Positions 44,235-62,284 of a DNA stretch of 64,000 nt are shown here, piece by piece. The first letter of the stretch is position 1. The number at the start of each line of letters is the position of its first letter. The position numbers and the translations under genes were made by a program. This DNA comes from a virus (Duplodnaviria; Caudoviricetes). The notes beneath the pieces were generated by a model. That model was not told the origin of the DNA and did no database searches. It worked only from the letters and a program-made list of their open reading frames with translations. The stretch covers positions 1 to 64,000 of the IMG/VR virus record IMGVR_UViG_3300005077_000012; one strand, written 5' to 3'.

Positions 44235-45620
44235 TTAGAACCAGCCGAGAGTCGAAGGAGCAACGTTCTTAATCCTGATGTGCTGCACGCCCTTCTTCAC
44301 TGCCATTGTCCCGAAGAGAAGCATGAGGAACGGATACACGGCCGCGTTGGTCGGGTACAGATCGAACTTCATCATCGGAAGGAACTGCGCCCACTCGATC
44401 GCGTCGTACATCGGGTCCATCGTCAGCATGAACACATCCGAACATCCCGGAAGGTTGCTGTTGTAGTCGTAGACGTCTCCGGTGGTTGCCGGAGCTGCCG
44501 TGGTAAACGCGTACCGGACAGTCGCACCAGTCACGCCACCCTTGATCGACCGATAAATCTTGATACCAGTCGATGCCGGGGAACCGTTGGTAATGTTGAA
44601 GATGACGCGATCGCCAGCAGCAACCCCAGTCACGATCTGCTCGGCAGTCGCCGTACCATCACCGTACTTGTTGACGCCGACGAGCTTGTACACATAGTCG
44701 CCAGCGTCAGTCGACGCAAACTCAGAGCTTGCGTGTGTGGTATGAGTCACCGAGTTGACTGTGAGGGCACCGGGCCTGCTTGCGGTAATCGACGACGCTG
44801 AGGGAGTTGATCCTTCAGCAATGAAGATGTCCGCGCGGAGCTTCGGGGTACCGAACGGAGTCGGATAATCCTCGAATACGGTGCTACCCGCGTTTGCGCT
44901 CCCGGGAGTAAACCGGATGCGGTCCCTGAGCATCCTTTGAACGTCTGCCATGACCATTGTCGAGCAGAAGAGATCGGTCACCTTACCGAATGACTCGCGG
45001 ATGTTCCGGGCACCGAGCTCGATCTTGTTGACGAAGTCCGCGCTGGTGGCGTCCTTGCCTCTGAGGTCGAGAACGTTGGTTGACGGTATCTGAGCGATCA
45101 GACCGTCAGGCTGCTCGGCAACGATTGAGCTGTCCCCGTAAAACAGGGCCTTCTCAAGGTTCCGAATGATCCAGAGCGCGCCTGCGTTTTTCTCCAGAGC
45201 CATCGCGTCTTCGATCATGTTCGAGACGCTGGCCTGCAGCGTAACCTTCCTGAGAGTCTGAAGGTACTTCGCAGTCGCATACGCGCGGGCGATCGTCTGT
45301 TCGCCTTCGATTGAGTCGCCACCTTCAGCAACCCACGCGCCGTCGTTTGCACCGACGTCGGTGCGCTTGTCCCACTGGTGGACCGGCGACTTGATCGGTT
45401 GTTTTTTGAGTCTCTGAAAGAGAACCGCGTCTTCCTGTGAGTGCAGGACGTTGACAAGAGTCGAGTCCAGACTCTCAGGGATGAGTGCCCGGCCACCGGT
45501 GAACGCCGCAGCGTCAACACCGGAACCAGCAGAGAGGGCCTTGCTGAGGTAATCCAGAGTCTCCTCATTCGCCCGGGAAAAACCCTCGTAGCCGAGGTCT
45601 AATTGATTGAGAATATCCAT
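44235..45620 (-). CDS. Major capsid protein
   Basis: 461 aa; KAL.AG.G...GGRAL..ESLD..L N-terminus reminiscent of SPO1/Twort-like MCPs; follows protease and scaffold. Confidence 0.88.
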   Translation of the reverse strand: MDILNQLDLGYEGFSRANEETLDYLSKALSAGSGVDAAAFTGGRALIPESLDSTLVNVLHSQEDAVLFQRLKKQPIKSPVHQWDKRTDVGANDGAWVAEGGDSIEGEQTIARAYATAKYLQTLRKVTLQASVSNMIEDAMALEKNAGALWIIRNLEKALFYGDSSIVAEQPDGLIAQIPSTNVLDLRGKDATSADFVNKIELGARNIRESFGKVTDLFCSTMVMADVQRMLRDRIRFTPGSANAGSTVFEDYPTPFGTPKLRADIFIAEGSTPSASSITASRPGALTVNSVTHTTHASSEFASTDAGDYVYKLVGVNKYGDGTATAEQIVTGVAAGDRVIFNITNGSPASTGIKIYRSIKGGVTGATVRYAFTTAAPATTGDVYDYNSNLPGCSDVFMLTMDPMYDAIEWAQFLPMMKFDLYPTNAAVYPFLMLLFGTMAVKKGVQHIRIKNVAPSTLGWF

Positions 45621-45639
45621 GTGTAAGCCTCCTGTTTAC

Positions 45640-46305
45640 TTACTGAACGCTCTTGATCAGGGCAACGTGCCGCTCATCAAGGGGTATGTTTTTATTGAGT
45701 CTGCCCTCGATCTTTGTGACATCGAGAACGTCGAGCTTGCCTGCTTTGCAGAGCTTCATCGCTTTGTCGAGAATTTCGACACGGGACAGTGCGGAGGCCG
45801 CTTCCACAGCCTCAAACCTGTCACCGGACTTCCTGAGCACGGACCGTGACGGTACCGGCGCATCGCCGATCTTCTCAACGGTGTCCCGGACGGCCTTCTG
45901 CATCTCGGCAGACGCCACCGCGAACTGGACCTGCGCCTTGCTCAGAGCCGCAACGTCCTTAATGCTTTTCTGCATGGTGCTCACTGCCGCGTTCACCGCA
46001 GCGAACTTCTCGTCGATCCCCTTCACCAGTGATCTCAGGAAGGGCTCGATATCCATCGCGGCACCCGCATCTGCATCGTCCTCAGCGACAAACTCTTCGA
46101 GAGACTTCATGGTCGGCTTCTTGCCGTCCTCTTCGTCATCCTCATCGCCTTCTGCTTCCTCTTCTTCGCCGGGGAATTCGTTCGCTTCCTCGTCGTCCTT
46201 TTTCGCCTTCTGGAACGAGTTGAGAGTAGTCTTCAGCGACTCCAAAGAGTCATTGAAGGACTTCTCCATATCCTCAAATCCAACGGCTTCTAATGCCTTT
46301 GTCAT
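45640..46305 (-). CDS. Capsid scaffold protein, putative
   Basis: 221 aa acidic coiled coil with about 10 x-x-K-[AS] motifs; lies between protease and MCP. Confidence 0.7.
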   Translation of the reverse strand: MTKALEAVGFEDMEKSFNDSLESLKTTLNSFQKAKKDDEEANEFPGEEEEAEGDEDDEEDGKKPTMKSLEEFVAEDDADAGAAMDIEPFLRSLVKGIDEKFAAVNAAVSTMQKSIKDVAALSKAQVQFAVASAEMQKAVRDTVEKIGDAPVPSRSVLRKSGDRFEAVEAASALSRVEILDKAMKLCKAGKLDVLDVTKIEGRLNKNIPLDERHVALIKSVQ

Positions 46306-46307
46306 TG

Positions 46308-47153
46308 CTATCCTCCAAAATAATTTTGTATTGTAGGCAATTTTCTTGTGATATATTGTATCAGCTCTGCTGATATGTTCGACGGGTACCCCCGGGACAG
46401 GATGAACTCCATCACGTCGTTATACGACTTGACCTTCCCGCTGGTGATCGCCGCCAGTAACGCGTCAAACACCCGACGGAGCTCCCCGTACGGGATCGAG
46501 TAGCCCTGCGCGTTGAACGTATCGCTCAGCTCCGATCCCTGTAAACTCTCCGGGGTCAACGCGCGCCCCCCGGTAAACGCCTCCGCATTGACCCCATCGC
46601 CTGCCATGAGGGCCTTCGCGAACTGCGCGAACGGGATGATCGAAACATGACCGAGCGTGCCGTCATTGACCGGCTTGTGTGTGATCGCGGTCTCATCCCA
46701 GATCACACGCATTATCATCCCCTTGACACCACCGGCGGACCCCTTCACTTTTTGGATTATTCCGCCGCCCACCGACGCACCGAGCTTCTTCGCCCCGGAC
46801 AGGATATTCTGCCAGAGACCCTGCGAAATCTTGTTCTCTTTATACAGGAACCCTTTTACCAGTGTTTCATTCCGGTCCGTAAATGCGACGTCACTCGGCT
46901 CGCCTATGATGTATTGAGGATCGTGAATCTGCTTGTGCTTGTGGTCCCACGACAGGACGCCGTGTGTCAGATAGTAATCTGCCGCCTCCTTCAGGGCTTT
47001 ACAGAAAACCACCTCAGAGTCCTGATCACGACTCTCATTCGACGCCTGCAGGTACACGTTCCACTTGCCGTCCTCCTCGACACCCTTAACAAGGGCCGAC
47101 GCAAACGGAGAGTAAAACTGATCGCCACCCGCTGCCTGTATTGTCCTGCTCAT
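46308..47153 (-). CDS. Prohead protease
   Basis: ASNESRDQDSE, SWDH, GEP, LGASVGG, AIT..PVN motifs of phage prohead serine proteases. Confidence 0.8.
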   Translation of the reverse strand: MSRTIQAAGGDQFYSPFASALVKGVEEDGKWNVYLQASNESRDQDSEVVFCKALKEAADYYLTHGVLSWDHKHKQIHDPQYIIGEPSDVAFTDRNETLVKGFLYKENKISQGLWQNILSGAKKLGASVGGGIIQKVKGSAGGVKGMIMRVIWDETAITHKPVNDGTLGHVSIIPFAQFAKALMAGDGVNAEAFTGGRALTPESLQGSELSDTFNAQGYSIPYGELRRVFDALLAAITSGKVKSYNDVMEFILSRGYPSNISAELIQYITRKLPTIQNYFGG

Positions 47154-47917: not shown

Positions 47918-50809
47918 CTACTTAAACGATACGTCGACCCACGCCACCGGCACGATCGCCTTCGGGTTGCGCACACACCACTCATCATGCTGCAGCGGAT
48001 TGCCGACCCCCGTATAACTCATAGACATCCCCTTCTTCCCGTATATTGTATCCCACTGAGAATCGTCCCGCTCACGGACGTGATCCCCGGGAGAGACTTT
48101 CCCCATCGACGTCCGGCACTGGAGCATAACCCCGGAACCGCTCCGGGAGAATGTCCCGGCCACGTACTGCGCGCTCTTCGAGCTCGACTTCGCGAAGTAG
48201 ATACCATCCCCGAGCAGACGCCCGTTCTTCGCCGAACCGACCCGCATCCCGCCTTTAATGATACTGGCCCCGGCCTGAAAGTCCGTTCCGTGGTACAGGT
48301 ACTGCTGATTGTCCTTTGCGTTCTCAATCGCTTTGTAGTCCCCGTAATAGTCGTGGTACATGACCTCCATGACCGCATTGACCTGCAACCGGTCTGAACT
48401 GTACCCGGACGACTGGTGACTCCAGTCCGCCTTGATCTTGTCCATCCACTCCTTCTTCCCGGAGTCGCCCTTCCCTTTCAGGACGATCGTCGGCATGGTC
48501 CGGTTCCCCTTCGTCTTCATTCCCATACTGATCGCGAGCTGTTCGGTTCTGATACCCTTGATCGCCGTGTGGTAGGCGTCTGACCCCAGCATGAGCTGAT
48601 CCTTCTTCACTGGATTGTTCGGTGCGTGCGGTTTCAGACGACCCCAGCTCCACTCCGGGATAACCCGGGACTTCTTCGCCAGAGACCGCACGTTCCAGTT
48701 TGCACCGACCGCATACATCAGACTGGCCGCAGCAACGCCCTGAACGTACTGTGCATTGTACCGGTGATACTCAGACACTGACGCAACCGTCGTGTGGAAC
48801 TTTCCCCGCAACAGGTTTTTTCTTACCGACTCATCGGTCTTCCCGAACTCTATCGCCGTACCAGACCGGTCCTTCTTCCACCCACCATACCCCTTGCTCG
48901 ACGAACGCCACCGCCGCGTCGACGGACGAACGGCAGTGCTCATCTTCTTACCCATGTAATACTTGACAAGGCCCATTGACCCCGGCATCGCGTCGCCGTA
49001 ATCCTTGAACCGGACATCAAAATTCACGACCGAGTTTGAGTACCGTCGATCGCTATCCCGCACCGCGCCGGTACATATTCGCTCCAACCCATTATCCAAA
49101 TCTACCAGAGAGTACATCTCCAGAGACATAGCATCTCGATACGGTGTAAACAAGTTCTTCACCGCCTGCATGGTAGACTTCTCGTTGATTGGATACTTCC
49201 CCAACGTCCTGCCCGCATCGATGATCGAGTCAAAATACTCCATCCCTTTCCCTACATATCCACCGGTATTCGGATAGGAGACGTTGATCCCGTTATTCCA
49301 CTTCACGGTCTTCGCGCGCATCATACTCTTCAGATCGTTCGCAATATCACGCCACGTTGCCTCAGGGTTCAGATGCACCTTTTTACTAACCCCGTTACCC
49401 CGCGCGACCGCTCCGAGCTCAACGTAGTCCCGTGACTGCAACCACGAATCTACGGAGTACGCCGAGTCCGGGACAACCACATACTTCTGCAGGAACGCAC
49501 TGATCGCCGGGTACTTCTTCCGAAGGGACTCCCCGGCAGCCTTCAGATCGTCATAACTGTACTGCTTCACCGGACCCGAATACGATGACCCAGACCATCC
49601 CGTATTCGCCACCTTCCCGTACTTCTCAAGCCACGGTTTGATAACCTTCTCACCATAGTCCGGATGCAATGCGCCCATTACAAAAGACGTGTACGTTTCA
49701 GAATCCCAATGCTGGTGTGAATTATAAACAACATCATCGATACCCAGCACCGTAAAAAACTCTTGTACCTTCGACGGCAGGTCCTTGTAAACGTCCCTCC
49801 AACGCTCGGTCACAGCAAGCAACTCCGCTCCCGGAATGATCGTGGAGACCAGTGCCCCCGGGAGCCGGTCAAGACTCTGCGTCCCCCGCAGAGAATAATC
49901 CAGCTCGCCCAGCTTCTCCAGCAGGCGCTTGTCATTTTCTTGCGCCTTCAGCAGGTTGATCCACCGCTGTGCAACCACCTGCGACTCCTCAACCTCACGA
50001 TCAACGGCCGCATCGATAGCGCCCTGATTATATCCGTACCAGTTCTTCTGGACATACTCCGTAACGCGCTTCTTGTATGCTGCGGTCTTCGCCTCCGCCA
50101 GAAACTCCTCCATCTTCGCCTGCACCTCTTCGAGAAACAGCGGGTCCTCCAGCCACTTTCCATCGGAGCCCATCGGTATATCCGGGGCGATCTTCCCGAA
50201 CTCGGTCTGCTGCTCCTTCGTCATCTTGAATATGTTGTCAAGGTTCTTCGACACATACTCCTCGGCCTCCTTGTTCAAGCAGAGCACACCCGTGATATCA
50301 CACAGGTCCCGGGCATCATCGCTGGCCTCACGCCAGTAGAGCTGGTGCTTCTTCGGTGCCTTGTCCAGCTCGGCGTCAGAGGGCCGATCGGAAGACACCG
50401 GGCTCGCCTGCCCGGACTTGCGCTTCTCTTCCTCCTCCTTCTTCTTTTTCTCCATGTTGTCTTTCATCTTGCCCAGACGTTTCTTGCGGGCCTGCTCGTC
50501 TTCGTATGCCTTGACGTCCGCAGGCGTGACCATGCCGTCGTACACCCACTTGCCGTTTGCGTCCTTCCGGACCCACTGCGCGTGCTTCGTCCCGAACCCG
50601 TGTATCTTCCGGGTCCCGATCGGGAGCGGAGCCCCTTTCCGCAGCGTTTCGAGAAAAATTACAAGGCGCGCCTTACTTATCCCGGCCATGCGCTTGTATA
50701 CTCCCATCACATAGGCGTAGTCGTCACCGCGCCCCTCCCGGGCGGCGGCCTCCTTTGCTTTCTCCCACTTCGCCTCGTCGACCGGCTTCCCGTGTATCTT
50801 CTTCGGCAT
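47918..50809 (-). CDS. Large head-associated protein with C-terminal PARP-like ADP-ribosyltransferase
   Basis: YLYHGT, GRLLGDGIYFAKSSSKSAQY, HDEW (H-Y-E triad); ATG 50809 with GGAGG RBS; N-terminal tag module. Confidence 0.85.
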   Translation of the reverse strand: MPKKIHGKPVDEAKWEKAKEAAAREGRGDDYAYVMGVYKRMAGISKARLVIFLETLRKGAPLPIGTRKIHGFGTKHAQWVRKDANGKWVYDGMVTPADVKAYEDEQARKKRLGKMKDNMEKKKKEEEEKRKSGQASPVSSDRPSDAELDKAPKKHQLYWREASDDARDLCDITGVLCLNKEAEEYVSKNLDNIFKMTKEQQTEFGKIAPDIPMGSDGKWLEDPLFLEEVQAKMEEFLAEAKTAAYKKRVTEYVQKNWYGYNQGAIDAAVDREVEESQVVAQRWINLLKAQENDKRLLEKLGELDYSLRGTQSLDRLPGALVSTIIPGAELLAVTERWRDVYKDLPSKVQEFFTVLGIDDVVYNSHQHWDSETYTSFVMGALHPDYGEKVIKPWLEKYGKVANTGWSGSSYSGPVKQYSYDDLKAAGESLRKKYPAISAFLQKYVVVPDSAYSVDSWLQSRDYVELGAVARGNGVSKKVHLNPEATWRDIANDLKSMMRAKTVKWNNGINVSYPNTGGYVGKGMEYFDSIIDAGRTLGKYPINEKSTMQAVKNLFTPYRDAMSLEMYSLVDLDNGLERICTGAVRDSDRRYSNSVVNFDVRFKDYGDAMPGSMGLVKYYMGKKMSTAVRPSTRRWRSSSKGYGGWKKDRSGTAIEFGKTDESVRKNLLRGKFHTTVASVSEYHRYNAQYVQGVAAASLMYAVGANWNVRSLAKKSRVIPEWSWGRLKPHAPNNPVKKDQLMLGSDAYHTAIKGIRTEQLAISMGMKTKGNRTMPTIVLKGKGDSGKKEWMDKIKADWSHQSSGYSSDRLQVNAVMEVMYHDYYGDYKAIENAKDNQQYLYHGTDFQAGASIIKGGMRVGSAKNGRLLGDGIYFAKSSSKSAQYVAGTFSRSGSGVMLQCRTSMGKVSPGDHVRERDDSQWDTIYGKKGMSMSYTGVGNPLQHDEWCVRNPKAIVPVAWVDVSFK

Positions 50810-50834
50810 GGCTATACCCCTCCAGTAATCTTGA

Positions 50835-51968
50835 TCATGCGCCCGCCTGCTTTGCCATCGCAGCGTCGAGCATATCATAGTATTTCTTCATACCCGGCGT
50901 ATACCGGGTCCATGTACACCTGCAGTGCGGGTGTTGCGTCCCGGCAGCAACCCACCACTCCCGGGCCTTCCGTCCAAAATTGTTCTTACCCGGCCAGATC
51001 GCGGTATACCGGGTCCCGTCAACCTCTATCGTATCATCACCACCGGACGGGGCCGCATCCAGCAGCACCACGATCCGTCCGTTGATGTGTGTGGCACAGA
51101 ACGTACAGGCCCCCGGCCCGGACACCCCACGCATGAACACGAACTCATCCGGAGACGTCACCTTCTCGGCCACCAGATACCCGTTATTAAAATTCGTCGC
51201 GGTCTCGGTCTCCGCGATCCTGCGCCAGTCCCGGTTGAGTGTTGAGAACGTATCGAACAGCTTCCGCTCGGTCTCCCGGGCCGTCAGGCGGTTCTTCTGC
51301 GCGTCCAGTATGGACGACACCACCGCCCGGCGCGCGCTGTCCGATATATCCTGTATCAACTCCCCGGTATGCACTTCGGAGAAGTCCCTAATGTTCCGGT
51401 AGACCTCGTCGGCCGTCAGCTTCTTTACCTCGGCGTCGACAGCAGGTTTCAGGTCAGTATACGTCTTGCTGATCTGGTCCTCGACCGGCATCCCCTGTAA
51501 TATCTTACCCAACGCCATCGCCCGAAGGACCAGAGACTGCTCGACCTCACCGAACAGGTACCCGAAAACACTGTCCAGATCGTGTGCAATCACCTCCCAC
51601 TCCGCCCGGGTCAGGGCCTGCCCGGTCGACGGGTTTATGTACGTCGTCCCGTTCAGGATGAACGGATCATCCCCCACGGCCTTGCGAAATTCATCGAAAT
51701 GGTCCCCCATCCCCTTCGCGACATCCAGCCTCAACCACTTCGTCGTAATCTCAGTCAGGACCCGCTGCAGCCCCGCCCGCACCTGATCCCGCAGAATATC
51801 GCTGAGCTCCTGCAGGGCCGGGTAGGGCGTCGGCTCGGTTTTCTCGGTATGGTTGTGTGCAACCTCGGCCGGGACCTTCAGGGCCTTCGACAGGGCCTCG
51901 ACGACTGCCCGGAGCTTCTGCTCCGCCTTGTCTTCCGGATTGTGTATCTCAATTATGATCTTTTCCAT
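50835..51968 (-). CDS. MuF / SPP1 gp7-like head morphogenesis protein
   Basis: RRIAETET...FNNG, C.FC, HPHCRC.W motifs. Confidence 0.85.
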   Translation of the reverse strand: MEKIIIEIHNPEDKAEQKLRAVVEALSKALKVPAEVAHNHTEKTEPTPYPALQELSDILRDQVRAGLQRVLTEITTKWLRLDVAKGMGDHFDEFRKAVGDDPFILNGTTYINPSTGQALTRAEWEVIAHDLDSVFGYLFGEVEQSLVLRAMALGKILQGMPVEDQISKTYTDLKPAVDAEVKKLTADEVYRNIRDFSEVHTGELIQDISDSARRAVVSSILDAQKNRLTARETERKLFDTFSTLNRDWRRIAETETATNFNNGYLVAEKVTSPDEFVFMRGVSGPGACTFCATHINGRIVVLLDAAPSGGDDTIEVDGTRYTAIWPGKNNFGRKAREWWVAAGTQHPHCRCTWTRYTPGMKKYYDMLDAAMAKQAGA

Positions 51969-52088
51969 AGCCCTCGTATTCGCTTCCAGAGGCCCTGTAC
52001 GGGGCCCGCGCAGGCTCCGGGTAGGTTACCCCTCCCCGGGCAGATCGGACGCTGCCCCACGCAAAATAACGGCAGTAGCGGCCGACCC

Positions 52089-54440
52089 TCAGAACAGTCT
52101 GTGCCGGAGCCCGACCACATACGCCAGACGCCGGATCGCTTTCAGCAGTTTCGGCCCGAAATGCTTTTTCAACAGGCCCTCGAACTTCCCGTCCTCAAAC
52201 ATCGCATAGGTCGGATCGACCTCCGGGAACCCCCAGCCGAACGGATTGTCCGCCGCGTCCCCCACCGCATCCATACGCTCGTCCGTCGTCGTATACTCCG
52301 GCTGCTTCGCCTTGTACCGGATAAACTGGTCAAAGGTCCGGGCGAACACCTCGTTGACGTCGCCCCAATACCGGGACCGCTTCGAGTAATAGTCGGAGTG
52401 TGTCTGCTTGCGGAATGAGTGTACGGTAACCTCGGACAGGTGCTGTGAATACATCTCGAACGCTCGGTCCACAACCTTTGCCGGTGCAAAACGTACCCGG
52501 TCAACGATCGATTTCAGATCGTCCACAGAATAGACTCCCTTCGTCTCCGATACGATCGCAGGACCATGCTTGTCCGGGTCATTCAACGCATTGCGCAGCG
52601 TCGAAAGGAACTCATCCGGCGTAACGGTTCCGTACCGATCATCCGCCTGATTAGCGTTGTGGAGCATGGCACGCAGGCTCGGCTCAACGATCTCAACGAA
52701 CTTCAGGACATCCAGACCCTTACGCCCGGCAAGGTCCGGGTGCGCCGTCAGGTACCCGCCGATTTCCGACAACGCCACGGCAGACGACTGATCGATGTAC
52801 GTCTTGAACGCCGCATGAGACGGATTGAATGTCTCCTTGATCTTCTGCTCAAGACCAGACGCCTTGACCCACTCCTTGAACTCGTCGACCAACACCTTCC
52901 CGCCCCGGTAAAAAAAGTAATGTCCCGCTTCGTGTACGATCGCCCCCGGGTACGACGGGGAGATATTCAACGAATGGTCCTTCTCGACGTAGAACCCGGC
53001 CGCCTTCTTCGACGCCTTCGCAATCCGCAGGATCATCTTCTTCCCGTCTGACGGAACGTAGTCCTTGAAATTGACCACGGACGAGATCGTCGAGAACACC
53101 TTGAACAATGCCCGCAGGCTCGGGGCCGACAGCTTCGCCTCCCTCCCGGGGATGATCGCATCGGTTGTGATCTCCAGACCGATCTCATCCCGGAACGCGG
53201 TGACGAGCTTCGCAATCTTCGGATCAGTCGCCATCAGGTGATCTTTATACCCGGCGGTCCCCTTGACGTACTTCATGATCCGCTTCTTTGAACTCTCATC
53301 CGCGAACTTGTTCAGGACCCCCTCGATCTTGTCGTACGGTATCGGAATGTACGGCAGAACGAGGATCGAACGCCGCGTCGGATTGACATCGGAGAACTGG
53401 AGTCCAACCCGGCCGTCAGTCATCACCATCGAACCGGTTATCCCCAACTTCCCGATCGGCTCACGCTGCATCGCATTGTAGGATTGCCTCAACTGCGCAG
53501 CGGCGGCAGTCGCATAACGCAGATTGGATATGGCGTTCCTCGAAGGAACATCCAGACCGGACTGCACACTCTCAAGGGCCATCAGGTCCTGATACAAGGT
53601 TCCCGCCGCGCCGATCGACTTCGAGTCCAACAGGCCGTCCTCGAAGTCCTTGAGCTGCTTCCACCCGGTATAAAAGTCTGCCGCGTCCGGCGGCTGCACT
53701 TTCTCCCGAACCGCGTCCGGGAGCGCGTCGAGTTTTTGCTGCAGGCTCTCCAGAACGGCCTTCAGCGCATACTCCATCGACGGAGCCGACTCATAATCCC
53801 ACGTTGCCGACATCGCGGCCTCGGCGTCCAGCCCGGGAACCTTCTTTTCCTCAGCCTTCTTCGGAACCACCTTCGGTTTCTCCGGCTTCGGCCGCGTCCA
53901 CATCGCCACCGACGGCCGCCCCATAATCTTCTCATCATCGTCCAACTGCACCCGGTCCCACGTCACGATCTCAGCGTTGGCGTCCTCCTTGCTCAGGCGG
54001 AAGCGTTCCTGCGCCTCCTCCAGTGTCAGGTTGTCATACTCGGTAACCGGGCTGCCGTCGACGTGCACAACGAACACACGGTGCGTGTTCGCACGCTTCG
54101 CCTTCGGAGCATCGGGCTTCTTCACCTCCGGGGCCTTCGACCCTTCCATGAGCTTGTGCTTCAGTACATATTTGACGATATCGGTGTCGCCCTTCAGGTC
54201 GTGCCCGACTTCGGCCTTCACCTTCTCGATGATCTCTTTGCGTCGGTCCGCAGTGAGCTTCGCCCACCAGTCGAGAACCTTTGCACGCTCAGGCCACGGC
54301 CGGGCACCCTCATGCACCCCATCAACGACCTCAACCCACTTCTTATCCGACGCCTTCCGATACTTCCGACCCTTCCATTCCCGGATCGTACCAACCGGGT
54401 ACGCCTTCCCTTTGATCATCAGTCTATAGATTTTTAGCAC
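52089..54440 (-). CDS. Head-associated zincin metallopeptidase / LPD1-like polyvalent-type protein
   Basis: IVHEAGH (HExxH) and downstream EVFARTFDQF; N-terminal tag module; GTG start with GGGGAG RBS. Confidence 0.7.
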   Translation of the reverse strand: MLKIYRLMIKGKAYPVGTIREWKGRKYRKASDKKWVEVVDGVHEGARPWPERAKVLDWWAKLTADRRKEIIEKVKAEVGHDLKGDTDIVKYVLKHKLMEGSKAPEVKKPDAPKAKRANTHRVFVVHVDGSPVTEYDNLTLEEAQERFRLSKEDANAEIVTWDRVQLDDDEKIMGRPSVAMWTRPKPEKPKVVPKKAEEKKVPGLDAEAAMSATWDYESAPSMEYALKAVLESLQQKLDALPDAVREKVQPPDAADFYTGWKQLKDFEDGLLDSKSIGAAGTLYQDLMALESVQSGLDVPSRNAISNLRYATAAAAQLRQSYNAMQREPIGKLGITGSMVMTDGRVGLQFSDVNPTRRSILVLPYIPIPYDKIEGVLNKFADESSKKRIMKYVKGTAGYKDHLMATDPKIAKLVTAFRDEIGLEITTDAIIPGREAKLSAPSLRALFKVFSTISSVVNFKDYVPSDGKKMILRIAKASKKAAGFYVEKDHSLNISPSYPGAIVHEAGHYFFYRGGKVLVDEFKEWVKASGLEQKIKETFNPSHAAFKTYIDQSSAVALSEIGGYLTAHPDLAGRKGLDVLKFVEIVEPSLRAMLHNANQADDRYGTVTPDEFLSTLRNALNDPDKHGPAIVSETKGVYSVDDLKSIVDRVRFAPAKVVDRAFEMYSQHLSEVTVHSFRKQTHSDYYSKRSRYWGDVNEVFARTFDQFIRYKAKQPEYTTTDERMDAVGDAADNPFGWGFPEVDPTYAMFEDGKFEGLLKKHFGPKLLKAIRRLAYVVGLRHRLF

Positions 54441-54441
54441 G

Positions 54442-55224
54442 CTACTCCCCCATCAGATCAGACATCAGCTTCTCCATCTCTCGGTCCAGCCCGCGCAGTT
54501 CCTCCGCCGTCGTCTGTGAAACCTTCCGCGCATGATACAGGATTTCCCGCAGACCCATCTGTATCTTCGTTACCTGCTCCATGTTCGCATCGAATAACTC
54601 CTCCCGGGTCACATCCGCCGCGTAGAAGTACAGATCGTTCAGGATGGAACTCGCCAGCGCAATCAACGACTCGACCTTCCCTTCACTGAAGGTCCGGAAC
54701 TCCACCTCGTCAAACTCCTCCATCGGGTGCTCCCGAAACATATTCCGAACCTCACGCAGCAACTGAGTCCGCAATTCAACCAACACCAGACGGTAGATAT
54801 TAAACGAGTCACACAGAGTCGCGTGCTGGATGGACTTCCGCTTCAACAGGTCGATGTATATCCCCTGCATCAACAGCAGCAACTGATCACCACGCTCCTC
54901 GGCATAACTCATCTGCCCGCGTAACAGCAGCACGTTCCTGATCTCCAGCTTCCGGGTCAAGAGCTTGACCGTCTGGTTCAGCATCGTCACAACATCCCGG
55001 GAATGAGGGCACATCGCGTGCGGGCTCTTGACAGGCTTCGCCTTCGCCCTTCCCGGAACCCCGTCACCACCGATGTCCAGCTCCTTACCGCCGCTCACGA
55101 TCCGCAGACCCCGACGGACGATCAGGATCGCAGAGTACCCCAGCATGAACGTCAGGCCGGACGCGAATACCATCTGAAACCACTTCGGCAAGTCATTGAG
55201 CCAGTCTATAAATGTCGTAAACAC
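54442..55224 (-). CDS. Membrane-anchored helical protein, hypothetical
   Basis: N-terminal hydrophobic helix FQMVFASGLTFMLGYSAILIV. Confidence 0.65.
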   Translation of the reverse strand: MFTTFIDWLNDLPKWFQMVFASGLTFMLGYSAILIVRRGLRIVSGGKELDIGGDGVPGRAKAKPVKSPHAMCPHSRDVVTMLNQTVKLLTRKLEIRNVLLLRGQMSYAEERGDQLLLLMQGIYIDLLKRKSIQHATLCDSFNIYRLVLVELRTQLLREVRNMFREHPMEEFDEVEFRTFSEGKVESLIALASSILNDLYFYAADVTREELFDANMEQVTKIQMGLREILYHARKVSQTTAEELRGLDREMEKLMSDLMGE

Positions 55225-55260
55225 CGAAACCCCCCGCGCACGATCCCGAACGCCGTCACG

Positions 55261-58002
55261 TTAAATCCGGACCCACTGATCCGCTGCTTCTTTCCTGTAA
55301 CTCACCCCGGCGCGGGAACGCTGCGTCCCGATCGGGAGTGCTCCGCCCCGGTTGAGCTGCCAGTAGCGCTCCTCACGCTTGATACTCTTCGCGAGATCGT
55401 CCGGGAGCTCCTGCGACTTCTTCGCTTTCGCCTCACGGAACTTCTTCGCCACGAACGTCCCGGCGGCGTCAATGCTGGAGAACTCGCCCTGACTCTCCCC
55501 ACCACGCTCCACGGACACTTTACCGGAACCGTCGGTGTGCTTCTTCACGGACCACCACTCACCGTCAGGACCTTTTACTGTACCCGATGAATCTCCTTCC
55601 ATACTCTCAAGGATACCCTCGGCCTCGGCGGACAACCCGTCGTCCCCGGCAGGCTTCGCATCGGACTCATGTCTCTCTCCAGACGACACACCGTAGTTCT
55701 TCACATACTTCTCCACCGCCTCTTTAACAGTCTTTGACTGCGCCGTCGTCGAAAGGTAATGGAGCCGCTTTGTATCCGGGTCCTTATACCCCAGATCGAT
55801 CTGTCCGTGATTGGTCTTCCACCCCTTGATTGTATCCAGATTGATCTGAGGGTCTTTGACTCCCAGCTCCTTCAGCTTGTTTAAAATCGGACGTGCGTTA
55901 TACTTCGACCCACCACCAGCAGCGGGCTTGCCCTCTTTCACAGGCTCCCACTTCCCGGCAGCGACCTTCTTGTACTTCTTCCCCTTCCAGTCACGGATTG
56001 TCCCGGGCGGAAGTCCTCGGCCTTTGTTCAGCCAGACCACCGTGTCCTCCTTGCGCAGCTCCTCGATCGCCTTGCTCATGTCTTCCGTTTCGAGAAATTT
56101 TGCAGGCGTCTCTGCAACCTCAAGCTCCGCATCCGGAGTCGTCGTCCCCAGCCCGATATTCCGCTTCGCGTTCAACGTCAATTTCCACTCGTTCATAAAT
56201 TTCCTCGCCTTAAATAGTTTGCCCTGCCCTTCTGCCTCCATCGCAGCATCCCGGAGCTTCGACAGGTTTTTCTTCGCCTCTATATGTGTTTGTATCGCCT
56301 TCAGATCATCCGGATCAAGCTCCGACCGCAATGCCGCTTCAGGGACTTCCTTCCATCCCCCGGTCCTCGATGAATGATCATAGTACTCGGCCTCGACTTT
56401 GCCCTCGGCAGTCACCCGGTACCCATTCGCGTCCAGTATGTCCTTGATTGACTCAGGGTCCGCATCTGCCTTCGCCTGATCGTACCGCTCCTGCGCCGAC
56501 CCGCCGCGCTTCTTCTCCGCACGCTTCCCGGACTCATGCTTCTCGCGCTCGGCAGCCAGCTCCTTCTCCATCCGGGCCTTGTCATCCGCATCGCGCTTCG
56601 CCTGCGCTGCGTCGCGCTCGGCCTGCGCCTTCTTACCCGCCTCGTATTCCCCGGGAAGCTCGTCGATCCTCTTGCTGACCTTGTCCGCACCCTGCTTCTC
56701 GACGATCTTACCCAGCGCATTGATCGCCTTCTGCCTGCCCCCCAGCTCCCGGACAACCAGCATCCCGGTCTTCTTGTCAACCAGAGCGTACCCGGCCTTC
56801 CCGGACGGGAACGTCATGTCAAACCCCCAGAACTCCCGGTCAAGGTCCTTCACCTTCGCGGGTTTCATCGACGTACCCTCGGGGACCTTCACCACATTCC
56901 CCATGTGATCCGACACCTCGGTCGGGGCCTTCTCACCTTTCGCTGCGCCCTTGTCCGATTTCTTCACGGCAGCACCGGCCTGCTTGCTTGCCTCGGCAGC
57001 CCCGGCCACACCGCCGCCTTCGCTCGTCGCCTCGACGGTCTTCGCCGCGCCCTTGACGGCGGCCTCACCTTTGCCCGCAGCCTCTTTGATCCCACCCGCA
57101 ATGTCCTTAACCGAATCAGATATGCTCTGTGAACTCGACGTCGACGCCTGCTTCTTTAACCGCTCCAGCATCGCGTCCAGATTGGACTTGTCCTCACTGT
57201 CCGGCAGGTTCTTAATGTCCGACTTCAGCTTCTCATACGTCGCATCCCCGAGCTTCCCGCCCGTCTTCGGGGCCGCATCAGAATCACGCCCTCCCGTACG
57301 CACCGCCTTTACCGCAGCCTTCACCTGCTCATCAGAGGCCCCGGGCTTCAACTTCCCCGTAATTTTGTTAAGTGTATCCACGTCGAGTCCGATATAGTCA
57401 TTGCTCGCAGAATCCTCCGCGCTCCACGCCCGCATAACACGGTTCTCCAAAACCGTCTTTTCACCTTTATCCATCTGGGGCTCCCCAGCCTGCGCATCAC
57501 CTTCAGGCTCGCCCTTCGCTGCACCCTTGCCACTCTTCACGCGCACCCAGCCGGTGTCTCCCTTGCGGTACTTCTTTCCCTTCCATTCCCGGATAGTCCC
57601 GACCGGCAACGCCTTCCCCTTCTCCAGAGACTCCAGCTCTCGCAGACTCTTCGCTGCACTCTCCATCCTATCAAGACGGGTGTAATAGTCCGGTATCTCG
57701 GCCAGATGATCCCGCGCAATCTTCTCGGCCAGCTTCGGGTCATCGGTGTGCTCGGCCTCGACCTCGATCCCACGCTTCAACTGCTCCGGGTCCGGGCTCG
57801 TCTTCGCGGTCTGACTCCGGCCCTTACCAATGAAAGACCCCAGAATCGCATAGATCATCTCCTCGACCCCGTGCTTGTTCCACCCATGCGCCTCGGCCCA
57901 CTCATGGACCTCGTAGTCCTCCGGCTTCGGGTTCTCACTCAAGAATCGCTCAACCTGCAGCCTGCTCGGGCGTGCCTTATCGAGTTTTTGTACGCGTATC
58001 AT
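55261..58002 (-). CDS. Large Lys/Ala-rich head-associated protein with DUF5661-like N-terminal domain and three tag modules
   Basis: G..VE.EH..D...A.KIA.DHL.E.PDYY.RL motif (family recalled from memory); three P.GT modules. Confidence 0.65.
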   Translation of the reverse strand: MIRVQKLDKARPSRLQVERFLSENPKPEDYEVHEWAEAHGWNKHGVEEMIYAILGSFIGKGRSQTAKTSPDPEQLKRGIEVEAEHTDDPKLAEKIARDHLAEIPDYYTRLDRMESAAKSLRELESLEKGKALPVGTIREWKGKKYRKGDTGWVRVKSGKGAAKGEPEGDAQAGEPQMDKGEKTVLENRVMRAWSAEDSASNDYIGLDVDTLNKITGKLKPGASDEQVKAAVKAVRTGGRDSDAAPKTGGKLGDATYEKLKSDIKNLPDSEDKSNLDAMLERLKKQASTSSSQSISDSVKDIAGGIKEAAGKGEAAVKGAAKTVEATSEGGGVAGAAEASKQAGAAVKKSDKGAAKGEKAPTEVSDHMGNVVKVPEGTSMKPAKVKDLDREFWGFDMTFPSGKAGYALVDKKTGMLVVRELGGRQKAINALGKIVEKQGADKVSKRIDELPGEYEAGKKAQAERDAAQAKRDADDKARMEKELAAEREKHESGKRAEKKRGGSAQERYDQAKADADPESIKDILDANGYRVTAEGKVEAEYYDHSSRTGGWKEVPEAALRSELDPDDLKAIQTHIEAKKNLSKLRDAAMEAEGQGKLFKARKFMNEWKLTLNAKRNIGLGTTTPDAELEVAETPAKFLETEDMSKAIEELRKEDTVVWLNKGRGLPPGTIRDWKGKKYKKVAAGKWEPVKEGKPAAGGGSKYNARPILNKLKELGVKDPQINLDTIKGWKTNHGQIDLGYKDPDTKRLHYLSTTAQSKTVKEAVEKYVKNYGVSSGERHESDAKPAGDDGLSAEAEGILESMEGDSSGTVKGPDGEWWSVKKHTDGSGKVSVERGGESQGEFSSIDAAGTFVAKKFREAKAKKSQELPDDLAKSIKREERYWQLNRGGALPIGTQRSRAGVSYRKEAADQWVRI

Positions 58003-58240
58003 GTTTCTTGCCTCGCTTTGATTTTTTCATGCTTGAACCTGTATGACTAACGAGTGCCAGAACCTCCGGGATCGGAGAGCACCTGAGACACCCGTAAATA
58101 TAATTCCCAACACCGCCATGCCACGGACCAACTTCCACCCTGAACATCCACTCCCAGCGGAACGAACGCTCACACAACACACACCGTCTCCTCCGAAACG
58201 TGAACACCCTGTGCACCCGGGTCGGCCCACCAGCACGCAC
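57977..58240 (-). CDS. Small CxxC-containing hypothetical protein
   Basis: CVLC...CLRC; start uncertain. Confidence 0.4.
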   Translation of the reverse strand: MRAGGPTRVHRVFTFRRRRCVLCERSFRWEWMFRVEVGPWHGGVGNYIYGCLRCSPIPEVLALVSHTGSSMKKSKRGKKHDTRTKTR

Positions 58241-58506
58241 TACAGGACCTCCATCAATATCCCGCAGTACTGACCCACGTACAGCTCGCGCTCCACCGGT
58301 CCCTCGAACGGGCTATCGTACGTCAAGACCCGCTGCTTGTCCGACTCGACAAGGTCCTCGGGCCCGACCTGATCCCCATCCACATCACAATTCGCTCCGA
58401 CATAAAACGCATCCGGGTCCAGCGTCTCATACCATGCACCCATCCCGATCAGCGTGCGATTTTCCTCGATACCGCGCCAGTACTCCACAATGTTATACGC
58501 CATCAC
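58240..58506 (-). CDS. Hypothetical protein
   Basis: 88 aa acidic ORF with overlapping start/stop coupling. Confidence 0.6.
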   Translation of the reverse strand: MMAYNIVEYWRGIEENRTLIGMGAWYETLDPDAFYVGANCDVDGDQVGPEDLVESDKQRVLTYDSPFEGPVERELYVGQYCGILMEVL

Positions 58507-60536
58507 CGCAACTCCCGCATTATAGTCTGATAGATCGTCTCGAAGTGTCCGTTCCAGATCGCTCCACCCTGATCGTACTTCATGAAATTGGCCTTGAACT
58601 TCTTCATGCCTTCAACCCCGTCCTTCTGGACGACCTGATTTTCAAGGAACCGCTTTTTCTGTTCAGGCTTCAGCTTGTATACATACTGCAGGTTGTCCCG
58701 TATATGCTGATCAGTCTCCGGCGTCGTCTTATATCCCCGGGCAAGGAACTTGAACGACCTGAGCGTATAGCGCGGAGAGTGTGGTAACATCTTCGGATTG
58801 CAGAACTCCAGCGTCTTGCCCTCCAGTGCCGAGAGACCCTTCCCGGTCGCATCAATCATCACCCCGGTCAACGGGTCCAACTGCAGCGAGTTGATCGTGA
58901 AGTCCCGGGACTCAGCGTCGCCCTTCAGCCGCCAGCCCTTGACCTGCCACGATGGAACGTCGTCAGAGTGTTTGTGGACCGGCGTGATATCCACATCGAC
59001 CCCGGCGTCCTTGATAGTCACCAACCCCAGCCGGTCATTCAACGACCACGTATTCGCCCACGCCGGATTGAGTCCCTTGACTATGTGCTGCAGCTCGCCG
59101 TCAGAGCAGTTCGCAATGAAGTCAACATCCTTCGAGTCCCCGCCCTGCAGGAAGTCCCGGACGGTCCCACCCACGATCGTCAACGTGAACCCGGCAGCCT
59201 TGAACGTCTCACACAGCTTCCGGTACGTCACCTTCGATTTACCAATACGCGTCTCCATGACCTTCGCCACCGACGCGGCCATCTCCCCAGAGATATGAAA
59301 CAGGTTTTTATCTTCCAAACCATCATACAGCGAGTGCTCCTGTATTACCCCGTCAGGCTTAACGTTCTGCCAGCGTGAGTCGATCACCCGGCCATCGCTC
59401 ATCTTGATCAGTGCAGTTCCCTTGTTCCCCAGAGCAACCAGCTTCCCACGCTGACCGGAATACTTCTGGTGCCCCTGCCCGGTATAGACCACACTCTGCC
59501 CCTCGATCATCCGGTCCCGACGCGTGGTATCCTTTATCAACTGCTGCGCGGCCCCGGCGGCCACATCCTGCAGCTTCCCCACCTTGACACTGACCGCATG
59601 GTCCTGTAGCGCCTGCGCCGCTGCCTTGTTCTGCGCCGGTGTCGGGGCCTTCGCGCCCGGGTTTACCACACCGTCGTACAGCCACTTCCCGTCTGCACCC
59701 TTCTTGTACCAATAGTTCCCGTACTGCTTGCGTGTCCCGATCGGATCGCCGCCCTTCTGCATTTCGAGATATTTTGCAGGCCCGAACCGCATCGTCCTGA
59801 AATTAAACAAAGGGACCATCATCCCGATCCCCTTCGATAGATCATCCAGATCATCAGCACTCTTCTTGTACCCCAGCCGCTCGCTCAGGGCTTCCTTCGC
59901 GGCCTGCTTGCGCTGCGCATCCCGCTCAGCCCACTGCGAACCCTTTGCGCTCTCGTCCGGGCCCTTCGCCGGAGCTTCGCCATCCTTCACCTTAACAATC
60001 TTCACCGCGCCCTTGATCGACTGGACGTTCCCCTGACCTTCCGGGGCTTCAGGATTGAAACGGGTCTGCCACTGCATCGCGAACTTGCCATCCCGGGAAT
60101 ACAGCCGCTTCTGCTCATGGTCCAGACGCCCACCCCGGAACAACTTCCGGGACTCGTCCCCCAGCTCGCCCATCGCCTCCTCAAACCGGTGCGACAGCTT
60201 CGCAGGCGTGTTCACGTACGCCGTCGCCATGTCTTCCTTGTCCTCAGTGGACATCTCCCCGGACGACGGGTCCCCGGGCTTGTCCGATCCACCCCCGGGA
60301 CGCTCGGCACCCTTTTCCTTCCCAGCACCCAGCGGGGACCACTGCCCCTCGGCAACCTTCCGATACTTTGTTCCACCCCAATCAGCAACGGTCCCGACAG
60401 GCATCCGCTTGCCCGCCTTCACGAACGCCTCCGCGTCAACGCAGTTAACCCCGTGGTACACAGGGCCAGACAGGTCGTCTATCATTTCGAGAATTTTTGC
60501 AGGTGCCACAACCGGAAAGTCTAATATTCGTGCCAT
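58503..60536 (-). CDS. Head-associated class II (CCA/poly(A) polymerase-type) nucleotidyltransferase
   Basis: IVGGTVRDFL...KDVDF, DAESRDFTINSL, PRYTLRSFKF; two tag modules and a KOW-like segment upstream. Confidence 0.85.
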   Translation of the reverse strand: MARILDFPVVAPAKILEMIDDLSGPVYHGVNCVDAEAFVKAGKRMPVGTVADWGGTKYRKVAEGQWSPLGAGKEKGAERPGGGSDKPGDPSSGEMSTEDKEDMATAYVNTPAKLSHRFEEAMGELGDESRKLFRGGRLDHEQKRLYSRDGKFAMQWQTRFNPEAPEGQGNVQSIKGAVKIVKVKDGEAPAKGPDESAKGSQWAERDAQRKQAAKEALSERLGYKKSADDLDDLSKGIGMMVPLFNFRTMRFGPAKYLEMQKGGDPIGTRKQYGNYWYKKGADGKWLYDGVVNPGAKAPTPAQNKAAAQALQDHAVSVKVGKLQDVAAGAAQQLIKDTTRRDRMIEGQSVVYTGQGHQKYSGQRGKLVALGNKGTALIKMSDGRVIDSRWQNVKPDGVIQEHSLYDGLEDKNLFHISGEMAASVAKVMETRIGKSKVTYRKLCETFKAAGFTLTIVGGTVRDFLQGGDSKDVDFIANCSDGELQHIVKGLNPAWANTWSLNDRLGLVTIKDAGVDVDITPVHKHSDDVPSWQVKGWRLKGDAESRDFTINSLQLDPLTGVMIDATGKGLSALEGKTLEFCNPKMLPHSPRYTLRSFKFLARGYKTTPETDQHIRDNLQYVYKLKPEQKKRFLENQVVQKDGVEGMKKFKANFMKYDQGGAIWNGHFETIYQTIMRELR

Positions 60537-60647: not shown

Positions 60648-62231
60648 TCACTGGACGATTATACGCAGGACGCGCTCGTCTCCCATTGACTTCTCAAACG
60701 CGGCCCGCCAGTCTTCTCCGGGCTCCTGCCCATCTTCAGCACCATCGCCACCCGGCTCTCCGCCGTCCCCCGGCAGCATCTCCTCACCGGGGACGCCTCC
60801 AGCTTCCGGAAGAGCTCCCTCATCTCCGCCATCGTCAGGCGCGCCTCCGGGCCCCCCCATCGTCTCGGCCTGCTTCGACTGTGCGTATATCTGAACAGCC
60901 TGCGGATTGAGAACAACATTCGCGTAATCGTCTTCGATCGGATCATCACCGTCCTCCTCCCGCAGCTCATTGATAGTCTTCGTTGTCTCGATCATCTGCC
61001 GCCGTATCTGCATCCGCTGGAGCTCGTCTTCCCGCTCGATCCCGGTGAACTCAAACGACCACTCCGTCGTGACCTTGCGTATGATCTTACCGACGTGCTG
61101 CTCAGCGAACGCCAGCAGTGAACTCAGGCCGCGATCCCGGGACGCCTTAATCCTCGGCTCCCCACTCTCCCCGATGATCGACTGACTGTCATCCGCCTTG
61201 ATCCCGATCTCAGCAAGGTCGATCGAGAACACCGCACCGATAACCGACGACAGGAACATCATGAGCTTGTGATATTCCATGTCCCGGTTCGACTGCCCGA
61301 GATTTTTGAAGTCCATGCCGACGCCCTCTTTCCCGCTCGGCAGGATCGGGATATTCCACGCTCCCCCGGCCCCGCTCATGGCCGCGTACCAGTACCGGCG
61401 GATTGAGTCCATCTGCGTCTGCCCGATGTCCCCCATTACCGATATGAACCCCTTCGGCACCCGGTCCCGGACGAGCTGGTCCCGGATGTAGTTATACCCG
61501 AACAGCAGCGTCGTGATCAGGTCAATGCACTGCTCAACCGGAGAGTAACCCCAGCCACGGAACCGCAGGTCCACCCGCTTGTTCTTGTAGTCGAACAGCA
61601 GGTCCTCGGACGTGTACTGGTTGTAAATTTTGTTGTCGATCTCTTGAACGAACCTGATGTCCTTCTTGAATGGACTCTGGTCCACCTCGGTAGTCACGCG
61701 CTTGATGTACGCCCCGTCCAGCAACCAGAACGCGATCGCCTCGCCCTTCCGGTTGTACTGTATCTCGGTCGCCACCTGATCGATGACCAGCGTCTCCCGG
61801 ATCAGCATCGACAGGTAGTCGCTGAAGTCGTCCTCGCGGTCTGCATCATACTTGAACCCGGTCTGATCTATGAAGTTATGCAGCTCCCGGATCAGGGCCT
61901 GATCCCCCTTGACCGACTCCTTCCCGTCCCCGTCCATCGTCCGGATCAAATGAAACCCGCGCTTGCCACGCTCCTCGGTGAACTTCGTGAACGGCAGGCA
62001 CTGGTCGATCCGTGCGTTGACGATTGCGTTGATCAGCGGAATACGGTCCACGGTGTTGCGGATCGTAATGTAATTTATTCGGAGCAGCTTCTCCCGGACT
62101 CCCCGGAGTGCCCCTGACTGGACGAACGACATATACTCGGGCATACTCAGCAGTGATTGGAGCTTCGCTGCAGTCGCCTCCATGTTGATCAAGGCCGACC
62201 GCCTCTCTCCACGCTTCGTACGCTTCGCCAT
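60648..62231 (-). CDS. Portal protein
   Basis: RETLVIDQVATE, GWGYSP.EQ, P.G.IS, MDF..L.QSNRDMEY motifs; ATG 62231 preferred because the promoter overlaps 62282. Confidence 0.9.
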   Translation of the reverse strand: MAKRTKRGERRSALINMEATAAKLQSLLSMPEYMSFVQSGALRGVREKLLRINYITIRNTVDRIPLINAIVNARIDQCLPFTKFTEERGKRGFHLIRTMDGDGKESVKGDQALIRELHNFIDQTGFKYDADREDDFSDYLSMLIRETLVIDQVATEIQYNRKGEAIAFWLLDGAYIKRVTTEVDQSPFKKDIRFVQEIDNKIYNQYTSEDLLFDYKNKRVDLRFRGWGYSPVEQCIDLITTLLFGYNYIRDQLVRDRVPKGFISVMGDIGQTQMDSIRRYWYAAMSGAGGAWNIPILPSGKEGVGMDFKNLGQSNRDMEYHKLMMFLSSVIGAVFSIDLAEIGIKADDSQSIIGESGEPRIKASRDRGLSSLLAFAEQHVGKIIRKVTTEWSFEFTGIEREDELQRMQIRRQMIETTKTINELREEDGDDPIEDDYANVVLNPQAVQIYAQSKQAETMGGPGGAPDDGGDEGALPEAGGVPGEEMLPGDGGEPGGDGAEDGQEPGEDWRAAFEKSMGDERVLRIIVQ

Positions 62232-62284
62232 TCGTTTCTCCGATGTGTGTGTAGTGTGTGAGCCTTCCCTCTCTCTCACCATCT

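Follow-up and report, generated by a model that had tools for sequence, protein, structure and literature searches.

The window analysed here is the first 64 kb of one 87,219-bp contig, the IMG/VR virus record IMGVR_UViG_3300005077_000012 (Duplodnaviria; Caudoviricetes). The element in question is a short module that recurs in the products of four long open reading frames (ORFs) on the minus strand, lying between a portal gene and a prohead protease gene in a region where all the genes are on that strand. Taken as their longest reading frames, the four, which we call cargo genes, are as follows.

58503-60536, minus strand: cargo gene 1, 677 amino acids (aa), with a PolyA_pol/CCA-type nucleotidyltransferase head domain at aa 453-576 (PolyA_pol, E 2.8e-17)
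55261-58002, minus strand: cargo gene 2, 913 aa, with DUF5661 at aa 73-115 (E 2.6e-14) and the remainder without assignment
52089-54440, minus strand: cargo gene 3, 783 aa, with a zincin H-E-A-G-H at 52920-52934
47918-50878, minus strand: cargo gene 4, 986 aa, with a PARP catalytic domain at aa 829-928

A Pfam scan of these four proteins found one recognisable domain per protein, together with unassigned regions. The product of cargo gene 3 has a weak match to LPD1 at aa 687-715, whose E-value of 7.7e-4 is under Pfam's cut-off. The C-terminal domain of cargo gene 4 (47918-48394) matches PARP catalytic (PF00644, E 2.5e-14) and not ART-PolyVal, the usual domain in such proteins.

From inspection of the window alone, the module had been described as a unit of about 27 residues that occurs seven times in the four proteins. 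Translating the four ORFs and the seven intervals given in that original prediction reproduces its peptides exactly. That there is a module is confirmed; its true extent, however, is longer than was claimed, since the unit begins about 7 residues earlier, with hydrophobic-x-K-G-K, and closes with W-x-P-V. With these wider limits the copies are placed as follows.

60333-60422, minus strand: copy 1, in the 677-aa nucleotidyltransferase protein, aa 39-68
59676-59765, minus strand: copy 2, in the same protein, aa 258-287, with an in-frame ATG at 59762
57538-57627, minus strand: copy 3, in the 913-aa DUF5661 protein, aa 126-155, the copy used for folding
55942-56031, minus strand: copy 4, in the 913-aa DUF5661 protein, aa 658-687
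55267-55356, minus strand: copy 5, at the extreme C-terminus of the 913-aa DUF5661 protein, aa 883-912 of 913
54330-54419, minus strand: copy 6, in the 783-aa zincin (H-E-A-G-H)/weak LPD1 protein
50537-50644, minus strand: copy 7, in the 986-aa PARP-like protein, aa 79-114, with a 5-residue insertion in the first turn

Searched against the 87,219-bp genome translated in six frames, a profile made from the seven copies found these seven alone, the next best match having an E-value of 0.24. As a guard against circularity, a second profile was built from foreign sequences only (195 copies, from proteins that had themselves been found with a window-derived profile). It recovered all seven at independent E-values of 5.7e-16 to 6.6e-8, the next best being 2.7. 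The recovery of the seven copies is far beyond chance. The copies at 57547 and 54336 had also been said to be alike in their DNA, a point that adds nothing: they agree at 62% of nucleotides, 62% of residues and 52% of third-codon positions, and over all pairs of copies the identity at third-codon positions is 28-62%, which is near background. Because agreement at these positions goes no further than this, we take the copies to be old and conserved at the protein level. Recent duplication of the copies as DNA was considered and is ruled out, third-codon positions being at background.

The module extends well beyond this genome. A profile search of 1.84 billion cluster representatives returned 507 proteins at E<=0.001 and 40 at E<=1e-10; the matching proteins are often large, with a maximum of 2,551 aa, and re-scoring confirms up to four copies per protein. 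The module is a real and widespread domain. When 206 copies are anchored on P-x-G-[TS], they give a sharp logo, hydrophobic-x-K-G-[KR]-A-[LYF]-P-[VI]-G-T-[IV]-R-x-W-x-G-x-K-Y-x-K-x-A-x-G-K-W-x-P-V, downstream of which runs a K/G/E/S-rich stretch. The K/R-[GA] dipeptide, at which each copy had been noticed to begin, turns out to be a conserved part of the module, in the segment that we call its header (K in 155 of the 206 copies, G in 114, K/R in 172). The basic and aromatic character ascribed to the module is borne out as well. The copies in the window have net charges of +3 to +8, and the mean over the 206 copies is +5.3 +/- 2 per 26 residues, as against +0.9 per 26 residues for whole proteins. 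In 81 of 136 proteins (60%) the first copy lies inside the first 60 residues, and the median spacing between successive copies is 307 residues.

The original prediction could assign the module to no named family, and our searches agree with it, since Pfam, NCBIfam and the PDB sequences are without a match. Thus, isolated copies searched against Pfam gave, even at E 10, a chance row only (NoBody, E 0.08); NCBIfam gave no relevant match; the profile search of PDB sequences gave only a designed trefoil (E 0.52); and the ESM Atlas gave only unnamed viral clusters, with scores below 0.9. The Pfam models include those named for the LPD, PBECR and PolyVal domains (PMC5512222), none of which matches the module, and no description of it is found in the main texts of the polyvalent-protein paper (PMC5512222) and of a later jumbo-phage paper. 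On the strength of these comparisons, the domain appears to have been undescribed until now. What is new is a sequence-defined tag family; the class of polyvalent proteins and the idea of capsid-targeting signals are already known. The module adds an unnamed domain family to the parts inventory of polyvalent proteins.

A small beta-meander had been suspected from the sequence. AlphaFold2, given a 28-row alignment, likewise yields a three-stranded antiparallel meander as a predicted structure, with a mean predicted local distance difference test score (pLDDT) of 81, 89 and 84 for the three blocks of 10 residues at its centre. The strands predicted for the 913-aa protein are I137-W140, K143-K147 and W152-V155. 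When the model of the module was used for fold searches, every match fell below significance, as is expected at 30 residues. Among viral models, uncultured gut phages supply the top rows (30-48% identity), which are true carriers of the module; the weaker Foldseek rows include models of HNH endonucleases, with root-mean-square deviations (rmsd) of 0.8-1.2 over 26-27 columns, prob 0.89-0.98 and E 0.4-0.9. With three predicted strands and a W-x-P ending, the module was also considered as a WW domain. That assignment is not supported: the tryptophans of the module are 13 residues apart (20-22 in WW), there is no Pfam match at E 10, and the fold rows shown include no WW domain.

Among the PDB entries, the first match in Foldseek, as well as in VIA, a fold search independent of Foldseek that covered 48,161 chains, is chain I of 8y6v, a 34-residue beta fragment of a phiKZ capsid structure. 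The scores are not significant (Foldseek E 0.29, prob 0.96; VIA Z 2.3, rmsd 1.9 over 28 residues). In phiKZ, gp184 is the only beta-rich member of a complex on the inner capsid surface, where it fills the gap at the hexamer centre, and it is a substrate of the head protease (PMC11297242). We infer that chain I is gp184 from the beta-rich description in that paper and from the pattern of gp184 residues 74-102, which, compared by eye with the module, have the same spacing of the turn glycines, the strand-2 aromatic and the final G-W-V. The phiKZ fragment would thus be a head-internal, protease-processed, small beta-meander that plugs the inner face of the hexamer; however, its segment is acidic whereas the module is basic, and the profile search of PDB sequences does not retrieve this chain. 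The likeness is a weak lead only, counted in favour of the address label proposed below.

The charge and the HNH rows bear on another explanation, the main rival of the one that we favour, namely that the module is a mini-domain that binds nucleic acids non-specifically and, through its basic sheet with exposed W/Y/W, would clamp effector units to packaged DNA, or target host DNA or RNA after entry. We regard this as unlikely, although several observations would suit it. The module is far more basic than the proteins that carry it and has a basic linker next to it; its aromatic and basic positions are near-invariant over distant hosts; three-stranded sheets of the AP2 or integrase-arm type bind DNA, as is generally known; and the partner domains often act on nucleic acids (ddrB-ParB, PBECR, topoisomerase IB, nucleotidyltransferase). 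Fold similarity to AP2-like or HNH-associated DNA-binding modules is seen in the weak viral HNH model rows (E 0.4-0.9). Yet matches to Pfam DNA-binding families are zero, even at E 10. The genomic setting, described below, bears on it further.

What the module is attached to was examined in carriers from other genomes. In 36 foreign carriers, Pfam finds SAM lyase (8), DUF3293 (7), LPD1 (6), NUDIX (6), topoisomerase IB (3) and ddrB-ParB (3), besides InPase, zeta toxin, RelA_SpoT, ART-PolyVal, Kinase-PolyVal, mCpol and others; in 10 IMG/VR carriers it finds ddrB-ParB, PBECR1-3, InPase and LPD1. Several of the foreign carriers have two or three domains per protein. In their predicted domain content, the carriers show the hallmark domains of phage-type polyvalent proteins. 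That class was delineated by Iyer, Burroughs, Anand, de Souza and Aravind in 2017, who predicted that such proteins, with two to fifteen disparate domains per polypeptide, are packaged, injected and processed into units (PMC5512222). The carriers resemble it in holding LPD1, ART-PolyVal, ddrB-ParB, InPase, PBECR1-3, RelA_SpoT and zeta toxin domains and in adjoining portal, MuF and capsid genes. Unlike it, the set in the window is spread over four genes, each with a single recognisable enzyme, and has MuF as a gene of its own.

The cargo genes sit among virion late genes, with the portal gene on one side and the genes for the protease, scaffold and capsid protein (44235-47153) on the other; relatives are laid out in the same way.

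60648-62282, minus strand: portal protein (PF04860; phrog_12, E 8.6e-38), directly upstream of the cargo array
50835-51968, minus strand: MuF-like head morphogenesis protein, 377 aa, within the cargo array and without the module
46308-47153, minus strand: prohead protease (phrog_1028)
45640-46305, minus strand: putative scaffold, 221 aa, with an acidic run and two header-like tetrapeptides (45823-45840 and 45736-45753)
44235-45620, minus strand: major capsid protein (SU10_MCP, SU10-type)

The tail of the portal protein (60648-60800) and a stretch of the scaffold candidate (46120-46220) are extremely acidic and D/E/G/P-rich, and the basic tags might pair electrostatically with either.

The association with phage head loci, which had been put forward for the module, was then followed through its relatives. 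A degenerate DNA pattern gave 29 loci in IMG/VR, 24 of them validated by profile. In bacterial genomes it gave 94 matches, with about 100 estimated by chance, and 16 of the 80 loci listed were validated; the raw bacterial count was therefore discarded. The validated bacterial loci are mostly Treponema prophages, plus Bacillota and one metagenome-assembled genome of the PVC group. The association holds: 15 of the 18 validated loci of at least 9 kb contain a homologue of the window's portal, MuF, protease or capsid protein (phmmer E<1e-5), and these include Treponema prophages and the Chryseobacterium phage MA9V-3. Since so many of the loci hold homologues of its head genes, the module seems to travel with one head lineage. 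MA9V-3 (L036, PV245944.1, 94325-103151) is a cultured phage of 103 kb, in which four variant copies ([GE]-[EVT]-[IV]-R-x-[WF]-x-G-[KR]-x-Y-[IR]-K ... W-K) are found in three proteins, annotated as hypothetical, between the portal and MuF homologues; the phage might serve as a model for experiments.

Three further loci are informative about the relation between the tag and its cargo. In the closest relative (L002), whose capsid protein is 74% identical, the gene order is the same and the cargo is different: nine copies occur in three proteins between portal and MuF, and the enzymes are SAM lyase, ART-PolyVal and RadC. In another locus (L004), copies are present on small single-enzyme proteins (acetyltransferase, SAM lyase) and on a 2,429-aa protein. 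With different enzymes borne on the same tag in these two loci, it is the cargo that changes and the tag that stays constant. In the third (L008:144-2339, on a 109-kb IMG/VR contig), a 731-aa phrog_1028 protease has one canonical copy, which lies in the long charged C-terminal extension of what is a protease-scaffold fusion. Furthermore, Phage_Mu_F is present neither in the four window proteins nor in the 10 IMG/VR carriers, and is not among the 25 families listed for the 36 others; MuF is instead a separate gene alongside the carriers, which fits a tag that replaces a covalent MuF fusion.

We propose, with moderate confidence, that the module serves as a portable address label by which cargo units enter the procapsid, its header being a possible protease site. 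A cargo unit would consist of the short header, hydrophobic-x-K-G-K-A-L; the basic three-stranded meander, P-[VI]-G-T-[IV]-R-x-W / G-x-K-Y-x-K / G-K-W-x-P-V; and a K/G/E/S-rich linker followed by the effector domain. The docking site of the meander would be some component inside the procapsid, in one head lineage (that with the SU10-like capsid protein, the phrog_1028 protease, MuF and the portal). As the head assembles, tagged units would become trapped in it, to exit with the DNA at infection; the maturation protease would probably separate units at the header. Docking, the identity of the partner, cleavage and ejection are inferred parts of this scheme. The position of the module fits an address label, as the first copy so often lies within the first 60 residues. 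The copy on the protease also supports it, as this enzyme does its work within procapsids, where binding DNA for ejection is not an evident requirement. It is at this point that nucleic-acid binding accounts for less. It leaves unexplained how the carriers enter the procapsid before DNA is pumped in, why the module is biased to the N-terminus and tightly linked to one head lineage, and why it is found in a protease-scaffold fusion, which should exit or be degraded before DNA fills the head.

The spacing of the copies allows yet another explanation, in which the module separates domains as a passive spacer, or lets them self-associate; on that view it may condense cargo into an inner body and would have no specific address function. 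The copies are indeed regularly spaced between globular parts, with low-complexity linkers after them, and some small carriers are little beyond two copies and a charged linker. But some 15 near-invariant positions over hundreds of divergent proteins are atypical of spacers, as are the N-terminal bias and the link to one head lineage, and we consider this explanation highly improbable. The address label covers most of the facts, namely the basic fold, the conservation, the N-terminal bias, the interchangeable effectors, the head context, the MuF-free carriers and the copy in the protease-scaffold fusion, and we hold to that view with middling assurance.

Several points weigh against the address label. 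A single tag should suffice for loading, so that the internal repeats, and copy 5 at a C-terminus, call for unit fusion or avidity. So strong a conservation of basic and aromatic residues at exposed positions, over hosts as remote from each other as Spirochaetota, Bacillota and Bacteroidota, is what would be expected for a universal ligand, for example nucleic acid. The fold matches, all of them below significance, include beta-sheet modules of HNH endonucleases that suggest DNA binding. The loci that define the head lineage were found through a strict DNA pattern or a window-derived profile, either of which may favour relatives. Finally, the likeness between the header and the capsid protein, which is taken up next, spans 4-6 residues, and K-A-L-x-x-G is found six times in 32.8 k residues.

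The header has counterparts in the head proteins themselves. The capsid protein has an N-terminal segment, L-x-K-A-L-x-A-G ... F-T-G-G-R-A-L-I-P-E (aa 25-51, 45468-45548, minus strand), in which L, K, A and L are invariant across ten homologues of 24-74% identity. Residues 178-204 of the prohead protease (46542-46622) repeat this 27-residue segment almost exactly, and the duplication is also present in two relatives (L009 and L027). This shared segment is probably a cleavage or docking element. The module consensus K-A-L-P-V-G resembles its K-A-L-S-A-G, and a header-like peptide of the scaffold is conserved in L002. As the K-G-[KR] start is conserved and similar headers occur in the capsid protein, in the C-terminal region of the protease and in the scaffold, cleavage at the header is plausible, though none of these features is decisive. 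A further peptide stands just ahead of the first copy.

60423-60440, minus strand: V-D-A-E-A-F, one residue ahead of module copy 1

Besides this site, the [DN]-A-[AE]-A-F class is found in the long ORFs only at the N-terminus of the capsid protein and in the C-terminal region of the protease. V-D-A-E-A-F matches the core of the segment that these two proteins share; a cut at this candidate maturation site would expose the module at a new N-terminus. A metagenomic carrier (P0085, 1,124 aa) is of relevance as well. It has two module copies and a G-P-Y-I-G-P-R-G-G-K-W peptide (residues 147-165, 642-669 and 840-867), the latter sitting behind the same L-I-K-A-G type of header as the module, and at its other unit borders there are header-like peptides without the hairpin. 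The different tags behind such headers may be related or interchangeable.

These features could be given more weight than we have given them, by supposing that the module is mainly a processing cassette: the header would be the cut site, the hairpin would dock the prohead protease or a zincin peptidase of polyvalent proteins, and the purpose would be to cut multi-enzyme proteins, not to load them. In its favour, conservation of the header, hydrophobic-x-K-G-[KR], equals that of the hairpin; headers without hairpins occur in P0085, and similar short peptides in the three head proteins; V-D-A-E-A-F stands just in front of copy 1, and its only other occurrences are in the capsid protein and the protease; and in the proposal of Iyer et al. 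(PMC5512222) polyvalent proteins are cut into units by peptidases, cargo gene 3 having H-E-A-G-H. Nevertheless, in 60% of the carriers the first copy is within 60 residues of the start, where there is nothing to cut off; small single-domain proteins carry the module too; a folded hairpin of 25 residues far exceeds the needs of a cut site; and as copy 5 ends its protein, a cut there would free the tag alone. We judge a cassette of this kind to be distinctly unlikely.

An address label of the type that we favour can be set against two known ways of filling phage heads. In T4 the signal, an unfolded peptide some 10 residues long, targets the scaffolding core and is cut off at L-x-E, whereas the module is predicted to be a folded basic hairpin of about 30 residues, is often repeated internally and has no sequence likeness to it. 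The internal proteins of T4 are diverse anti-restriction proteins that share only this capsid targeting sequence, and the similarity lies in there being a conserved short label on diverse, mostly anti-defence, head-packaged proteins (PMC3012670). The T4 sequence is N-terminal and tied to processing by the prohead protease, and its likeness to the module is a functional analogy only. Effectors fused to MuF or to the portal (SPP1 gp7/Mu F family; PMC5512222) occupy the same gene neighbourhood and face the same problem of entering the head beside the portal. There, however, the address is a covalent MuF or portal domain of 100-300 residues, in place of which the carriers scanned here have a mini-domain.

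Head-packaged effectors that are injected are the phage's first move against host defences, and how large polyvalent proteins are chosen for packaging is known only for a few model phages (T4, P1, SPP1). The tag, which at least 507 protein clusters carry, would be a searchable handle for injected effectors in metagenomes, including unknown anti-defence enzymes, and in a cultured phage it would be a concrete, mutable element for tests of loading and processing. If it is a loading signal, foreign proteins could be placed into heads of this lineage.

Some likely starts of cargo genes, and in-frame ATGs within them, lie close behind a DNA motif of 16-17 bp that consists of TGC, seven A/T, CTATAG or CTCGAA, and then A. 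Between 2116 and 60501 the window has 15 matches, with 0.2 expected, and the whole genome has 18 exact copies. On the coding strand, seven of the 11 copies have, 0-13 nucleotides downstream, a start codon with a long reading frame behind it. Among these start codons are that of the tail sheath gene, ATG 54419, ATG 60485 and two in-frame internal ATGs, one at 59762, directly after the motif and directly before copy 2, and one at 56079, 19 codons ahead of copy 4. For three cargo genes the longest ORF probably begins too far upstream, and better starts are 54419, 60485 and 50809. Thus, the true start of cargo gene 1 is likely 60485, directly after the motif; a start at 54419 would place module copy 6 at residue 1-3 of the 783-aa protein; and 50809 is the likely start of cargo gene 4, by which its overlap with the MuF gene is removed. 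Within ORFs the motif always has the CTCGAA form, which is read as L-E. The CTATAG form would give an in-frame stop, and the restriction to CTCGAA suggests that a start signal is kept at the unit borders. The motif is possibly a promoter or start signal, which would imply leaderless or very short-leader mRNAs and nested products starting before copies 2 and 4. A phage-encoded RNA polymerase was not found among the large ORFs of the genome.

If each unit keeps its own start signal, in the form of the in-frame 17-bp motif and an ATG, units could be made both fused and alone. This leads to a more specific version of the address label, which we put forward as a doubtful but conceivable elaboration. 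In such a plug-and-play arrangement, the mini-domain would dock on the inner capsid wall or a fixed site of the procapsid, the tagged enzymes would be loaded, cut at the header and injected, and units having their own start signal would be produced in fused form and singly. The docking so proposed is comparable to that of the cargo-loading peptides of encapsulins.

Megablast of the 14-kb array against cultured phages gave zero matches, and a homologue search restricted to residues 1-60 returned the query alone. With the 913-aa protein, the sole tblastn match was a DUF5661 protein of Synechococcus phage S-SRM01 (L001:2827-4656), a 609-aa hypothetical protein that adjoins the small terminase subunit. 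DUF5661 is common to both proteins; after it, the S-SRM01 protein has a different short W/G/K-rich peptide, and the module profile does not match. Elsewhere, the genome of the window encodes a tail sheath, a gpA-type terminase, a DNA polymerase A fused to UDG, RecA, SbcCD-like proteins and a helicase, and the phage is of the myovirus type.

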